Positions 48,252 through 53,772 are shown, counted from the stretch's first letter. The stretch: 64,000 nucleotides of DNA from Escherichia phage EP75 (MG748547), one strand, 5' to 3'. Notes: generated by a model not told the origin, from the sequence alone. Numbers and translations are program-made.

Positions 48252-48950
48252 ATGGCCAGACCATTTGAAAAATATTTCTATCATGAATCATTGTTGAAAT
48301 ACATACATGTGTTCAACGCTATCATGTCAGATTTAAAAGTCAAAACCGAACGTGGCTTGATGGAAATCCCGCTGCATATGGCCATTGGCCGCCGTAATGA
48401 CCTCAACAGGAACGTGCCAGCCAATATGCTGCCATTTGCAACAATGTCCTTTGGTCAGTTCGAAATCAATAAACAGGTGACGAAGTCATACCACAACCAA
48501 ATATCGACCGCTACGGCACGGTCCAAACAACGCATTCCGATCATTATAGATTTTGAATACAATATCAGAACTAAAAAATTGGTCGAAATGTTGCAAGTAT
48601 TAGAACAAATTTATTCTGTGTTCACTCCTTCTATTGATTGTCAGATAAAAGACAACGATACGCTATCTCAAGATCAGAACGTGAAGATAATGTTGGTAAA
48701 TCACACGATTTCTGACAACTGGGAAGGAGACGCAACAGAATCACCACACATAGATTGTTCATTCAATTTTCAATTACATGGTCACATCTATGGAGAAGAT
48801 TATTGGGTTGATGATGGTTCGGGCGGTGGGGATCCAAACGTCATCAAAGAGATAATTATTGAAATGTCTAATGATTTGAACATGCCATGGTCGGAACTTC
48901 CTGAATGGTTCCGAGTTGATAAAGACGGCATACATCATCCGGAGGATTGA
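48252..48950 (+). CDS. tail completion / sheath stabiliser (T4 gp15-like)
   Basis: synteny gp14-gp15-terminase; weak motif similarity. Confidence 0.45.
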   Translation: MARPFEKYFYHESLLKYIHVFNAIMSDLKVKTERGLMEIPLHMAIGRRNDLNRNVPANMLPFATMSFGQFEINKQVTKSYHNQISTATARSKQRIPIIIDFEYNIRTKKLVEMLQVLEQIYSVFTPSIDCQIKDNDTLSQDQNVKIMLVNHTISDNWEGDATESPHIDCSFNFQLHGHIYGEDYWVDDGSGGGDPNVIKEIIIEMSNDLNMPWSELPEWFRVDKDGIHHPED

Positions 48951-49633
48951 TCATGAGCAATATGTCAGAAAGGTTACTCGCCACACTTGATGCGGTGACT
49001 GCCCGAGACGAAGTTGGGAAGGAGGCAATGGAGGCTGTCGCCCCTCGTCCAGGTATTGACTTCGATGAAAATACAGGTGAATGGTTTGGTGAACGTCCGG
49101 AAGGGTATCAGCCGATTCCTGAACCGCCTTCATTGGAGGATATTGCTTCCAAGGAATCCAAAGTACCTGAGTTTGCGGACACTGATGCTACAACGGATTA
49201 CAAACGGATACGCGACACAACATATGCCATGCAAGAAGCCACAATGTTCATGATGGGACAAGCCGCTAAATTGGCTGCATCCACAGAAGCTCCGCGAGCA
49301 TTTTCTGTTTTCCGTGAATTGGGTGAACTCATGCGCGGTCTGAATAAAGACCTGATGGAAAACCAGAAAACCATCAAGGCGGTGACAGGTGATAAAGAAC
49401 CACCTGTTGATGACACGACAGTGGATGTTACAACTTCACCAGACGGAACAACAACAGTATCGGTTGGGAAAAAGGCGCGATCTTCTCGCGATTTATTGAA
49501 GACGATTGAAGATGCCCGTCGTCGCGCTGAAGAAAGAGCACAAGCAAAGGCCGCACAACAACCAGAAGATGAAATCATTGATGGTGAAACAGTTGATGTG
49601 AAGGAAGAAGACGATGGCGTATCAGAAGCGTGA
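48947..49633 (+). CDS. terminase small subunit (gp16-like)
   Basis: immediately upstream of and overlapping terminase large subunit. Confidence 0.5.
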   Translation: MIMSNMSERLLATLDAVTARDEVGKEAMEAVAPRPGIDFDENTGEWFGERPEGYQPIPEPPSLEDIASKESKVPEFADTDATTDYKRIRDTTYAMQEATMFMMGQAAKLAASTEAPRAFSVFRELGELMRGLNKDLMENQKTIKAVTGDKEPPVDDTTVDVTTSPDGTTTVSVGKKARSSRDLLKTIEDARRRAEERAQAKAAQQPEDEIIDGETVDVKEEDDGVSEA

Positions 49634-51824
49634 TATAGAATATGCCCCAATTAAAACGGGGTTCAAAATAGACGATGTGAAATTGCGTATGGACCAAACG
49701 TTCATGCGCAAACCTTCTGTGCGTGCTCCCCGAGTCGAGTTAATGCTGACAGATGAACAAGAAGACGAATTCGTTGAATGTTCTATGGATGCACACTACT
49801 TCGCCGCCAACTATTACAAGATAACCACGATCGATAAAGGCTTTATCCTTTTCGATATGCATGATTATCAGAAGCAGTTGTTCCACGACTTTCAGGACTA
49901 TCGATTCAATGCGGTCGTCCAGGCTCGTCAGTCCGGAAAATGTGTAAAAGGCGACACGCTTGTCACAGTTTACGATACTCTCAGCCAAGAGGAGTTGCTC
50001 CTGACTATAGGGGAGCTTCACAGTCGCTTCGAGGACGTCAACCACGCTGTGCCGCTGAATACCATTGGCAACCATGACAAGTTCGTGGACAGCCGCTTCG
50101 GCAAACGTTACTTTGTACAATCCGATAGTGGCTGGGTTCCGGTTATCGCAGCGCATAAGACGAAGAAATATGCGGAATTCGTTATTGTCACCGTTACCGG
50201 AAGGCGAATTAACGTGGCCGATGAACATATGTTCTTCACTCCGGACATGAAGGAGATATTTGCCAAAGACCTGAATGCTGGGTCATACATCATGACGACA
50301 GAAGGTCCAGAAGAAATCCGTGAGATTTGGCAGACTGGTGAATATCACCATATGTACGATCTGCAGGTCAAATCTAGTGATCAACGTTATTACACGAATG
50401 GCTTTCTCAGTCATAACACGACCGTGGTGGCGGCGTTTCTTCTTTGGTACGCGATGTTCCATTCTGATAAGGAAATCGCAGTACTGGCAAACAAAGAGAA
50501 ACAAGCGATAGAAATTCTTGACCGTATCAGAAAGGCATACCAAGACCTTCCATTCTTCCTTCAGCAGGGTTGTGAGAAGTTTGGTTCTACCCTGATAGAG
50601 TTTGAGAATGGTTCTAAGATATACGCTTATGCCACGTCTTCGGACTCCATCCGTGGTCGTTCTGTATCGCTCTTGTACGTTGACGAAGTCGCGTTTATCG
50701 AAAACGACTTTGAATTTTGGGAATCAACTTTCCCAGCCATTGCATCTGCCGATACATCACGCTGTATTTTGACAAGTACTCCGAAAGGCCAGCGAGGGTT
50801 GTTCTATGATATTGTCACCAAAGCAGATCCGCGCCATCCACAATACAACGACTTCCACCTAACTGAAGTCCCATGGTATAAGGTTCCGGCATATACCAAA
50901 GATCCAGATTGGGAAACCAAACAACGTGCCCGTCTGGGGGATGCTCGTTTCGATCAAGAATTTGGCATTAAGTTCCGTGGTTCCGTGGGTTCATTGATTC
51001 CGGCCAAATGCTTAGATAAAATGACGTCCAAGTTGTATCGGGAACCTAATGAATTCACCAAGATTTATAAGGAATACGACCCACAACGTCTCTACTTTGG
51101 GATTGCGGACACTGGGAAGGGGGTGGAAGGAGATTATTCCGTCTTAACAATTCTGGATATAACTGAATATCCGCATGTTATAGCAGCCAAGTACAGGAAT
51201 AACACGATACCTCCTATGATGTATGCATACACGATAGCTGATATGTGCACCGAATACGGGGAATGCCCTGTCCTTGTTGAAACAAACAACGACGTCGGCG
51301 GTCAGGTTATTACAATTCTTTATCAAGAGATAGAATATCCAGAAATCATATTCACATCAACAGATAACAAAGGGACGGGGAAACGGATTGGTGGACGTAA
51401 ACCGGAACCTGGTATCAATACCAACAGAAAAGTCCGATCTATCGGTTGTGCTAACCTGAAAGCGCTCATTGAGAAAGAAATGTTGGTGATAGAAGACCAG
51501 GACACGATAGATGAACTCAGTACATTTGTGTTCAAAGGCGCTCGGTATGAAGCCGATGACGGTTGTCACGATGACTGTGTCATGCCGTTGGTCTTATATT
51601 CATGGGCGGTAAAACAAGAATGGTTCAGTGATTTGACATCTACAAGTATTTCTCAGGACATGAGAAACCGAATGTCTTCAACTGAATCTCAGCAGGTATT
51701 CCCATTTGGTGGTTTAGTCGTTGGAGACACCCCATCCGAAACTGAGCATTTGCCTGGTTTCGGGGGTATTCAAGTTTTCAACGAAATGTCAGGGATGACC
51801 ATGGATGAGTGGTTTAAGAATTGA
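49614..51824 (+). CDS. terminase large subunit (gp17-like), intein-containing precursor
   Basis: Walker A QARQSGK|TTVVAAFLLWY split by insertion; 736 aa precursor, about 574 aa after splicing. Confidence 0.9.
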   Translation: MAYQKRDIEYAPIKTGFKIDDVKLRMDQTFMRKPSVRAPRVELMLTDEQEDEFVECSMDAHYFAANYYKITTIDKGFILFDMHDYQKQLFHDFQDYRFNAVVQARQSGKCVKGDTLVTVYDTLSQEELLLTIGELHSRFEDVNHAVPLNTIGNHDKFVDSRFGKRYFVQSDSGWVPVIAAHKTKKYAEFVIVTVTGRRINVADEHMFFTPDMKEIFAKDLNAGSYIMTTEGPEEIREIWQTGEYHHMYDLQVKSSDQRYYTNGFLSHNTTVVAAFLLWYAMFHSDKEIAVLANKEKQAIEILDRIRKAYQDLPFFLQQGCEKFGSTLIEFENGSKIYAYATSSDSIRGRSVSLLYVDEVAFIENDFEFWESTFPAIASADTSRCILTSTPKGQRGLFYDIVTKADPRHPQYNDFHLTEVPWYKVPAYTKDPDWETKQRARLGDARFDQEFGIKFRGSVGSLIPAKCLDKMTSKLYREPNEFTKIYKEYDPQRLYFGIADTGKGVEGDYSVLTILDITEYPHVIAAKYRNNTIPPMMYAYTIADMCTEYGECPVLVETNNDVGGQVITILYQEIEYPEIIFTSTDNKGTGKRIGGRKPEPGINTNRKVRSIGCANLKALIEKEMLVIEDQDTIDELSTFVFKGARYEADDGCHDDCVMPLVLYSWAVKQEWFSDLTSTSISQDMRNRMSSTESQQVFPFGGLVVGDTPSETEHLPGFGGIQVFNEMSGMTMDEWFKN
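49941..50426 (+). other. mini-intein (162 aa, Hint domain only) inserted in terminase Walker A P-loop
   Basis: begins Cys (CVKGDTLVTV), block B GRRINVADEHMFFT, block F/G MYDLQV...NGFLSHN, +1 Thr restores GKT. Confidence 0.75.
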
Positions 51825-51826
51825 TC

Positions 51827-51833
51827 ACTAAAT
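51827..51833 (+). promoter_or_regulatory. late-promoter-like motif CTAAATA
   Basis: upstream of tail sheath gene. Confidence 0.4.
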
Positions 51834-51876
51834 ATCTTTCAAATTGAGCGAAACTCTACCGAGAAGGAATGATATT

Positions 51877-53772
51877 ATGGCAACTCAAAGCTTCAGCGTT
51901 GCGCCGTCCGTTCAGTGGACTGAGCGTGATGCCACGCTTCAGACGTCCCCGTCCGTTGTTGTTCAGGGCGCGACCGTCGGCAAATTTCAATGGGGTGAAG
52001 TTGAACTTCCAGTGCTGGTGACTGGTGGTGAGACAGGTTTGGTGAAGAAATTCTTCAAACCCAACGACAGTACTGCGACCGATTTTCTCGTAATCGCGGA
52101 CTTTTTGTCTTACAGCTCTATGGCATGGGTGACCCGTGTTGTTGGTCCTCTGGCCAAGAACTCTGTTACCAAAGGTCAGACAGCGATTGCGATCAAAAAC
52201 AAACTGGATTTTGAAACAGCAAGTCCTTCGGCGTCCATCACTTGGACTGGTCGTTATCCAGGTTCCCTGGGTAATGATATTGCTATCAATGTTTGTGATG
52301 CTGCTGGATTCTCAACTTGGGAATTCCGTAATAACTTTGCATACGCACCTCAGTCTGGTGAATTCCATGTAGTTGTCGTAGACAAAGTTGGTCGCATTAC
52401 CGACTCTGCTGGCGCGGTCGGTCAGGTTGACCGTATCTCCGTTTCTGGTACGGCTACTGCTGCTGGCACCATCAGTGTGGCAGGTGAAGATATCGCATAT
52501 CTGGATACTGATACTCCAGCCACTTTGGCAACCAAAATCGGTACAGCGCTAACTTCCCTGACAAGTGTTTATTCTTCTGTTGTCGTGAAGTCCAACACTG
52601 TCATCGTGACCCATAAAGCTATCGGTCCTCAGGCCGTTACAGCTATCGTTCCTGATGATAAAGGACTGACTGCAACAGCCGTAATCACTACTGTTGGCGC
52701 TTCTGGTTCCATCATTGAAAAATACGAACTGATGCAGAACACCCAGGGTTCTAAAAAATCCGATGGCGCGAATGCGTACTTCAAAGACGTGATCAACGAT
52801 ACTTCAAATTGGGTGTATACCTTCGCGGGCGAACTGGTTGCAGGTGTCGTTGAATTAGAAGGCGGCGTAGACGATTATAACATCAACCGCGTGGCAGCTA
52901 TCCAAGTCTTGAACAATGCTGAAGCATATGATGCGAAGCCAGTATTTGCGTACTGTGAAGAACTGATTGAGCAACAAGCATTGATCGACTTATCTACTGA
53001 GCGAAAAGATACCGTATCTTTCGTATCCCCGCTCCGTGATACGGTTGTTGGCAACCGTGGTCGTGAAATGGATGATGTCGTTGCTTGGCGTGAAAGCCTT
53101 GTTCGCGACTCTTCTTATTTCTTCATGGATGATAACTGGGCATACGTGTACGACAAGTACAACGACAAAATGCGTTGGATTCCGGCTTGTGGTGGCACCG
53201 CAGGTGTTTGGGCGCGAAGCATTGAAATCGCGGGTATCTACAAATCTCCTGCGTTCCACAACCGTGGCAAATACAACAACTACAATCGAATGGCGTGGTC
53301 TGCGTCTTCCGATGAACGTGCCGTGTTGTACCGCAACCAGATTAACAGCATTGTGACCTTCTCCAATGAAGGTATCGTGTTGTATGGTGACAAAACTGGC
53401 CTGACTCGTCCGTCTGCTTTCGATCGTATCAATGTTCGCGGTCTGTTTATTATGGCAGAACAGAACATCGCTGCAATCGCCAAATATTACCTTGGTGAGA
53501 ACAATGATGCGTTCACTCGCAGTCTGTTCAGCAACGCTGTTCGTCCTTATATTCGCCAGCTGGCAAATATGGGTGCGATTTACGATGGTAAAGTCAAGTG
53601 TGATGAAGATAACAACACTGCTGATGTTATCGCAGCAAATCAGCTTGTAGCGGGCATTTGGTTGAAGCCTGAGTACAGCATTAACTGGATTTATTTGGAT
53701 TTTGCTGCAGTTAGACCAGACATGGAGTTCTCGGAAATCGAATCGGGCGGTGGCATCGTTGCTGCATCCTAA
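51877..53772 (+). CDS. tail sheath protein (gp18-like)
   Basis: GKFQWGE near N-terminus and C-terminal YGDKTG...PSAFDRINVRGLF match T4 gp18 motifs; start trimmed to MATQSF. Confidence 0.85.
   Translation: MATQSFSVAPSVQWTERDATLQTSPSVVVQGATVGKFQWGEVELPVLVTGGETGLVKKFFKPNDSTATDFLVIADFLSYSSMAWVTRVVGPLAKNSVTKGQTAIAIKNKLDFETASPSASITWTGRYPGSLGNDIAINVCDAAGFSTWEFRNNFAYAPQSGEFHVVVVDKVGRITDSAGAVGQVDRISVSGTATAAGTISVAGEDIAYLDTDTPATLATKIGTALTSLTSVYSSVVVKSNTVIVTHKAIGPQAVTAIVPDDKGLTATAVITTVGASGSIIEKYELMQNTQGSKKSDGANAYFKDVINDTSNWVYTFAGELVAGVVELEGGVDDYNINRVAAIQVLNNAEAYDAKPVFAYCEELIEQQALIDLSTERKDTVSFVSPLRDTVVGNRGREMDDVVAWRESLVRDSSYFFMDDNWAYVYDKYNDKMRWIPACGGTAGVWARSIEIAGIYKSPAFHNRGKYNNYNRMAWSASSDERAVLYRNQINSIVTFSNEGIVLYGDKTGLTRPSAFDRINVRGLFIMAEQNIAAIAKYYLGENNDAFTRSLFSNAVRPYIRQLANMGAIYDGKVKCDEDNNTADVIAANQLVAGIWLKPEYSINWIYLDFAAVRPDMEFSEIESGGGIVAAS

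Follow-up and report, generated by a model that had tools for sequence, protein, structure and literature searches.

The large terminase subunit (TerL) of phages hosts several described inteins. In mycobacteriophages, Kelley et al. (2016, mBio; PMC5050341) located the TerL1-a intein between the invariant Lys and Thr of Walker A, a "classic" P-loop insertion, argued that both the active site and pentamer assembly require splicing, and showed efficient splicing for the TerL1-b, -c and -e, TerL6-f and Pham3880-g inteins. AceL TerL, GOS TerL, VidaL and Cat are TerL-derived, atypically split inteins with N-fragments of 16–37 amino acids, which splice in trans and are used in protein engineering (PMC13014065). 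Closest to the element described here, the Kutterviruses Marshall (KF669653) and Maynard (KF669654) were described in their genome announcements of 2013 as having a large terminase "interrupted by an intein", with the signatures Hint IPR003587 and splice site IPR006141, and the genome announcement of Klebsiella phage Magnus mentions its intein as well. Here, we analyse the TerL gene of Escherichia phage EP75 (MG748547) in a stretch of 64,000 nucleotides (the whole DNA analysed, hereafter the window, in which all coordinates are counted), where an insert divides the Walker A motif. The source group is Kuttervirus (Ackermannviridae; CBA120/ViI-like), and the region is 99.5–99.7% identical at the nucleotide level to Escherichia phage CBA120 and Salmonella phage SPTD1.

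We conclude, with a probability of roughly 0.93, that the insert is a 159-residue class-1 mini-intein placed in frame in Walker A (RQSGK/T) of a T4-type TerL, that the 84.5-kDa precursor is spliced, and that packaging depends on this splicing. Direct backing for this reading comes from the anatomy of the insert, its fold, its conserved catalytic residues and its exact site, from alleles in which that site is empty, and from evidence of purifying selection. The features concerned are given below; conservation was scored over 30 contiguous homologues, reaching down to 31% identity.

49614..51824, plus strand, including the stop codon: open reading frame (ORF) of the TerL precursor (T4 gp17 type), 736 amino acids, 84.5 kDa.
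49614..49940, plus strand: N-extein, 109 amino acids, closing with the first half of Walker A (…ARQSGK); delimited by alignment with the intein-less TerL of K448, RSP15 and T4.
49941..50417, plus strand: class-1 mini-intein, precursor Cys110 to Asn268, 159 amino acids (477 nucleotides), 18.3 kDa; identified by profiles, an AlphaFold2 model, Foldseek and the Magnus orthologue.
49941..49943, plus strand: Cys1 (codon TGT), the block A nucleophile for the N–S acyl shift; invariant in all 30 homologues.
50217..50228, plus strand: block B core A93-D94-E95-H96, His96 being the conserved block-B histidine; A93, D94 and H96 invariant.
50352..50360, plus strand: block F M138-Y139-D140, Asp140 being the conserved block-F aspartate; M138 and D140 invariant.
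50412..50417, plus strand: block G His158-Asn159, the penultimate His and the cyclising terminal Asn; L156-S157-H158-N159 invariant.
50418..50420, plus strand: Thr+1 (codon ACG; Thr269), C-extein nucleophile and Thr of the Walker A GKT; Thr in 29 of 30 homologues and Ser in one, aligned with the GKT of T4 gp17.
50418..51821, plus strand: C-extein, 468 amino acids, with the remaining ATPase domain and the RNaseH-like nuclease domain; Pfam Terminase_6N/6C matches and alignment to T4 gp17 (3ezk, 3cpe).

At its upstream junction the precursor reads …AVVQARQSGK and then CVKGDTLVTV; at the downstream junction, YYTNGFLSHN is followed by TTVVAAFLLWYA…. The insert is in frame, and the P-loop of the precursor is physically split, with the Walker A Lys before the insert and the Thr after it. 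With the insert taken out, the intein-less TerL of Vibrio phage K448 (56% identical), Ralstonia phage RSP15 (43%) and T4 (32%) align without a gap, their empty sites reading RQSGK-TTVVAAF, RQMGK-TTIVAGF and RQLGK-TTVVAIF, respectively. Metagenomic intein-less TerL (P0015–P0019) have C-exteins that are 76–85% identical, an empty site reading RQSGKTTVVAAFLL, and loci with the same gp15-TerS-TerL-sheath synteny as the window. Removal of the insert yields the junction of such natural intein-less alleles (…RQSGKTTVVAAF…), and the in-silico spliced TerL (577 amino acids) aligns unbroken across it with the T4 gp17 structures 3ezk and 3cpe (E 1.4e-76; T4 residues 85–563). Because both the intein-less homologues and the spliced protein align continuously across the junction, the insert comes between the Lys and Thr residues of GKT in Walker A. 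As is typical of inteins, it lies in frame in a conserved host site, its precise removal restores the host protein, and its presence among homologues is sporadic.

The original prediction, made from the sequence alone, had described an insert in the terminase ORF that starts with Cys (CVKGDTLVTV) and ends …NGFLSHN. All of these strings are present and the start at 49941 is right; the length and end are not, since the insert was given as 162 amino acids ending at 50426 (residues 110–271) and actually comprises 159 amino acids ending at 50417 (residues 110–268), three C-extein codons (TTV, 9 nucleotides) having been wrongly included. Its statement that removal restores a canonical P-loop (SGKT) is confirmed by the empty-site alleles and by the spliced alignment (RQSGK-TTVVAAF), and the exteins, which it had proposed to compare with T4 gp17, align continuously over the junction with RQxGKT restored. 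The spliced product that it expected to be about 18 kDa smaller agrees with the computed masses, in which the 84.5-kDa precursor gives a 66.2-kDa TerL and an 18.3-kDa intein. It had also held that homologous terminases carrying the segment as a normal, non-excised insertion would speak against an intein; the close homologues that have the insert keep all catalytic residues, and the others lack it precisely.

The isolated insert has a sole Pfam match, PF14890 (Intein_splicing; E 6.9e-9, 36.1 bits vs. a gathering score of 35.8), and also scores above the cut-off of the NCBIfam model TIGR01445 (intein_Nterm; 24.9 vs. 24.5 bits); such a match goes well past what chance would give. Among proteins of solved structure, those most similar in sequence are the consensus atypically split TerL intein Cat (6dsl, E 0.0024), VidaL (6vgv), a CDC21 intein and gp41-1. 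An AlphaFold2 model of the insert (22-sequence alignment; mean predicted local distance difference test score 95, predicted template modelling score 0.87) is nearly all β-strand, with two short helices at residues 23–29 and 36–43, and the entire chain is modelled as a HINT splicing domain. Foldseek comparison with the PDB returned only inteins or intein-like BIL domains among the top 50 hits, with VidaL as the best (E 1.6e-10, TM 0.75/0.83). Furthermore, the ratio of nonsynonymous to synonymous substitution rates (dN/dS) of the intein is ~0.04–0.08 in the pairs with finite dS, indicating purifying selection; in most pairs synonymous sites are saturated and the ratio is not computable.

An endonuclease domain (LAGLIDADG, HNH or other) was not found in the intein: 43 residues separate His96 from Asp140, and no nuclease profile matches. 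The insert is therefore a mini-intein without a homing endonuclease and not a full-length, endonuclease-bearing intein. With its Cys1, and with no Cys in block F, it belongs to class 1; class 3 was considered and rejected, given Cys1, an Asp (Asp140) at the block-F position, and no other Cys in the intein. Assignment as a BIL domain was likewise rejected on Cys1, on Thr+1 and on the insertion in a conserved host motif. These results sustain much of what had been read from the sequence at the outset. A profile search against intein and Hint models, which had been suggested, gave PF14890 and TIGR01445 above their curated cut-offs, the F/G-like blocks (MYDLQV…SHN) contain the invariant D140, H158 and N159, and space for a homing endonuclease is indeed wanting in a chain of 159 residues modelled as splicing domain throughout. 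The proposed block B holds in part: the invariant His96 is there, and the core reads A-D-E-H instead of T-x-x-H.

Several observations weigh against this conclusion. The thresholds of PF14890 and TIGR01445 are passed by a narrow margin only, and the C-terminal model TIGR01443 (24 positions) remains sub-threshold (12.2 vs. a cut-off of 15.6). In block B, the Thr of the textbook T-x-x-H is replaced by Ala93, with His96 kept; Ala at this position is the norm across the homologues of the intein, and the corresponding residues of VidaL are A-F-N-H. Compared with Cys or Ser, the Thr at +1 is the weaker nucleophile. Finally, a literature search found no experiment showing splicing of any Ackermannviridae TerL intein.

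What we infer beyond the anatomy is the splicing chemistry and the dependence of packaging on splicing. Cys1 would undergo an N–S acyl shift at the Lys109–Cys110 bond, and the hydroxyl of Thr+1 would then attack the thioester, a transesterification giving a branched intermediate. Cyclisation of Asn159, aided by His158 and the block-F Asp140, would release the 18.3-kDa intein, and an O–N shift would complete the 66.2-kDa terminase, its GKT loop intact. ATP binding and hydrolysis would be properties of spliced TerL alone, which would make DNA packaging dependent on splicing; splicing is almost certainly required for packaging in the phage of the window. In the collection, ~283 phage genomes carry the TerL intein, which amounts to practically every enterobacterial member of the Ackermannviridae there, and these are viable lytic phages. 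Because the P-loop is interrupted and yet these phages are viable, splicing should be efficient enough to supply active terminase.

The slim profile scores and the block B without its canonical Thr could alternatively point to a degenerate HINT-derived domain that does not splice and is tolerated, or has been co-opted, as a permanent insertion in TerL; the missing endonuclease would fit such a domain, and fixation of the insert in nearly all enterobacterial Ackermannviridae could suggest domestication. We consider this highly improbable, since the insert parts the P-loop Lys from its Thr within what is one continuous ATP-binding loop in T4 gp17, and since the residues that serve splicing only (Cys1, His96, Asp140, His158 and Asn159) are invariant down to 31% identity, with Thr+1 conserved in 29 of 30 homologues and replaced by Ser in the remaining one. 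The precise empty-site alleles of close relatives also argue against it, as does the active splicing of the related VidaL, Cat and AceL TerL inteins (PMC13014065). Removal of the interruption at the RNA level, by an intron or the like, is scarcely credible: T4-like phages do have group I introns in other genes, but the insert is in frame, free of stop codons and conserved as protein (dN/dS well below 1), with a HINT fold. Rfam gave no match at E ≤ 1 in positions 48900–52000, and on this result an RNA element, whether a group I intron or of another kind, was rejected. An antisense ORF of 162 amino acids that lies over the intein (49740–50228, minus strand) was dismissed as a chance ORF; it has no Pfam match and contains stops in Vi01, Magnus and Agtrevirus.

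A different question is whether an intein that does splice is kept as a conditional switch, responsive to temperature, redox or the state of assembly, by which terminase activation is timed or gated, and is not a mere selfish passenger. Near-universal retention across the phage family, strong purifying selection and the lack of an endonuclease are compatible with such a role, and a regulatory function of P-loop inteins was proposed by Kelley et al. in their discussion (PMC5050341). However, we found no direct evidence for it, and close relatives with 76–85% identical exteins manage without the intein. With a single Cys in the intein, an intramolecular disulfide trap within it is impossible, and the problem of deleting an element exactly from an essential motif accounts for the retention equally well. 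We therefore regard a switch as quite unlikely; the most fitting view of the TerL intein is that of a selfish element, fixed or persisting, which survives because it is seated in an indispensable motif.

The intein and its exteins differ in their relationships. Compared with a Vi01-type Kuttervirus (P0004), the exteins are 99.1% identical at the amino acid level and the intein 78.6%; compared with Agtrevirus (P0005; AV101-like), the exteins are 87.3% identical and the intein 97.5%. Sliding identity over 60 nucleotides and a mismatch map locate the source of this discrepancy:

49915..50340 (approximate), plus strand: laterally exchanged patch, 95–100% identical at the nucleotide level to Agtrevirus and 57–80% to Vi01.

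The patch, ~400 bp in length, takes in blocks A–B and the greater part of the intein; its breakpoints fall close to the N-terminal junction at one end and shortly before block F at the other, and the 95–100% identity to Agtrevirus runs from about 49,940 to about 50,340. Nucleotide identity between the window and Agtrevirus is ~80% on both sides of it, including the last ~75 nucleotides of the intein, and the comparison with the Vi01 type is the mirror image, with high identity in the flanks and low identity in the patch. Because the histories of intein and extein are incongruent in this way, the identity patterns indicate a lateral exchange in which part of the intein would have moved by recombination between the subfamilies Cvivirinae (Kuttervirus) and Aglimvirinae (Agtrevirus), the lack of an endonuclease domain notwithstanding. 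The TerL intein is probably still exchanged between co-infecting Ackermannviridae by recombination.

Homing endonucleases do occur next to TerL genes in relatives. In Dickeya phage LIMEstone1, F-LimIX (L004 1309–2193), a free-standing homing endonuclease gene with a NUMOD3 motif, separates terS from the terL that bears the intein, and a homing endonuclease is annotated beside terL in Klebsiella phage Trex_ER12. Collaborative homing is known for some phage introns. By analogy, free-standing endonucleases adjoining terL in relatives, such as F-LimIX, might have promoted the exchange in trans as a "collaborative homing" of the mini-intein, a scenario that we hold to be doubtful. In the window, a homing-endonuclease gene adjoining terL was looked for and is absent; there is none between terS and terL, because the two genes overlap by 20 nucleotides (49614–49633).

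48947..49633, plus strand: small terminase gene (terS, gp16-like), with a TTG start; identified from the ORF list, a Pfam DNA_Packaging match (27.8 bits) and the CBA120 annotation.

Upstream of terS lies a gp15-like gene (48252–48950) that overlaps it by 4 nucleotides, and the gp15-like/terS/terL module is tightly packed and probably translationally coupled. The TerL ORF is 99.5% identical at the nucleotide level to CBA120 orf198, which is labelled "gp17 terminase DNA packaging enzyme large subunit". Pfam Terminase_6N (PF03237) matches precursor residues 269–460 (E 2.8e-16), and Terminase_6C (PF17289) matches residues 498–656 with 20.9 bits in the precursor, compared to a cut-off of 22.6. The protein has the two parts that characterise T4 gp17-type terminases, an N-terminal ATPase with a Walker A of the form (G/S)xxxxGK(T/S), here the spliced loop ARQSGKT, and a C-terminal RNaseH-like nuclease. 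Two further records, OR844942.1 ("Enterococcus phage Efm 3-10") and MN871475.1 ("Pseudomonas phage Pa-sanjiao"), contain a terL that is 99.5% identical to the Kuttervirus gene of the window; they probably reflect mislabelled hosts or contaminating phage in the submissions.

Wider relatives of the intein were recovered with full TerL as the query, the isolated intein having given two matches in an index of 5.8 billion proteins, within the word-index and coverage limits of that search. Of the 120 TerL homologues listed, about 35 open with a C-intein fragment of ~120 amino acids ending …ILSHN/TT at the same site, and the intein of the window is therefore the contiguous form of the split TerL intein family. 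These metagenomic TerL (P0043, P0045, P0051, P0053, P0068 and others) are without the Walker A N-terminus; they start "M..LSD.V.RKF…" and continue to …SHN/TT. They represent the C-halves of atypically split inteins at the same site and are abundant in public assemblies.

A comparable arrangement is seen in a cultured phage. The annotated TerL of Vibrio phage vB_VmeM-32 (Straboviridae; L007 1102–3216) begins inside the intein, with a C-intein fragment of ~118 amino acids followed by TTVTAILL…, and an N-extein ORF is absent from the 1.1 kb upstream of it; this is probably a naturally atypically split intein. Around Walker B, the same ORF has another intein-like insert (IYVDE/CVSGDTMV…ESHN/CAFIE). 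Large inteins of 422–447 amino acids at the site of the window's intein (P0054, P0058, P0060 and P0065) contain a highly charged, low-complexity insertion of ~270–290 amino acids after helix 1, the point at which the split inteins are divided. A check of these relatives for endonuclease domains brought up no Pfam nuclease domain, and they therefore give no evidence of an ancestral homing endonuclease. In P0052, P0061 and P0063 (TerL of Vibrio phage VP-1), a P-loop intein is present, and after "…FDQE(Y/F).C" a GIY-YIG/SegE-like endonuclease domain replaces the nuclease domain, which suggests a terL that was fractured by a homing endonuclease gene.

The practical weight of these observations is modest. 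Kutterviruses of the CBA120/ViI-like group are used therapeutically and diagnostically, and their TerL would need maturation by protein splicing, a point of relevance to recombinant TerL expression. Most GenBank records leave the intein unmarked, those of CBA120 and most sister phages included, and the gene of Dickeya phage phiDP23.1 is labelled "pretoxin HINT domain protein". Moreover, because the history of the intein differs from that of the exteins, the intein should be removed before terminase-based phylogenies are built. No new question is raised by the location itself, the P-loop of TerL being a textbook intein insertion site.

The TerL intein of the window is already known, in that the same element has been published for sister phages, and only the mismatch between intein and extein histories is mildly new. 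The annotated intein of Marshall and Maynard shares its gene, its GK/T site, its length of 159 amino acids and its genus with that of the window, to which it is 79% identical at the amino acid level; in Klebsiella phage Magnus (Taipeivirus, likewise of the Ackermannviridae; NC_049462), a mat_peptide feature named "intein" has the same 477-nucleotide extent and site and 76% amino acid identity. The window differs from Marshall and Maynard in carrying the CBA120-type allele; over its first ~400 bp, this allele belongs to the Agtrevirus type and not to the Vi01/Marshall type. A related P-loop intein, 34–36% identical over the C-terminal 115 amino acids, occurs in the gp17-like terminase of Campylobacter phages CP21 and CP20 (Eucampyvirinae); unlike that of the window, the CP21 intein is placed three residues upstream of the K/T site (RQ/C…SHN/SSKST). 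The CP21 terminase (L006 1994–4439) is interrupted again downstream (…FSC/CLENTRV…) by a GIY-YIG-like segment and is annotated as two coding sequences.

The resemblance to the mycobacteriophage elements is one of position. TerL1-a resides in a Terminase_1 protein, whereas the host protein of the window is a T4-type Terminase_6, and the Terminase_6-like inteins of Kelley et al. (PMC5050341) sit in the C-motif and not in the P-loop. TerL1-b and -c have identifiable active endonuclease domains, unlike the intein of the window, and a close sequence relationship between the mycobacteriophage TerL inteins and this one is not detectable. In contrast, the split TerL inteins VidaL (6vgv) and Cat (6dsl) are its closest solved relatives, at ~20–28% identity, and share with it the motifs KF…, CAD(D/E)H, MYDLxV and YYTNGxLSHN. 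Whereas those inteins are split, the intein of the window is contiguous, is encoded in a single ORF and is predicted to splice in cis; the stretch that corresponds to the split site (residues ~30–46) is retained in it as a helix-loop. As a contiguous natural relative of the engineered split inteins VidaL, Cat and AceL TerL, it offers a possible point of comparison for why those inteins split.

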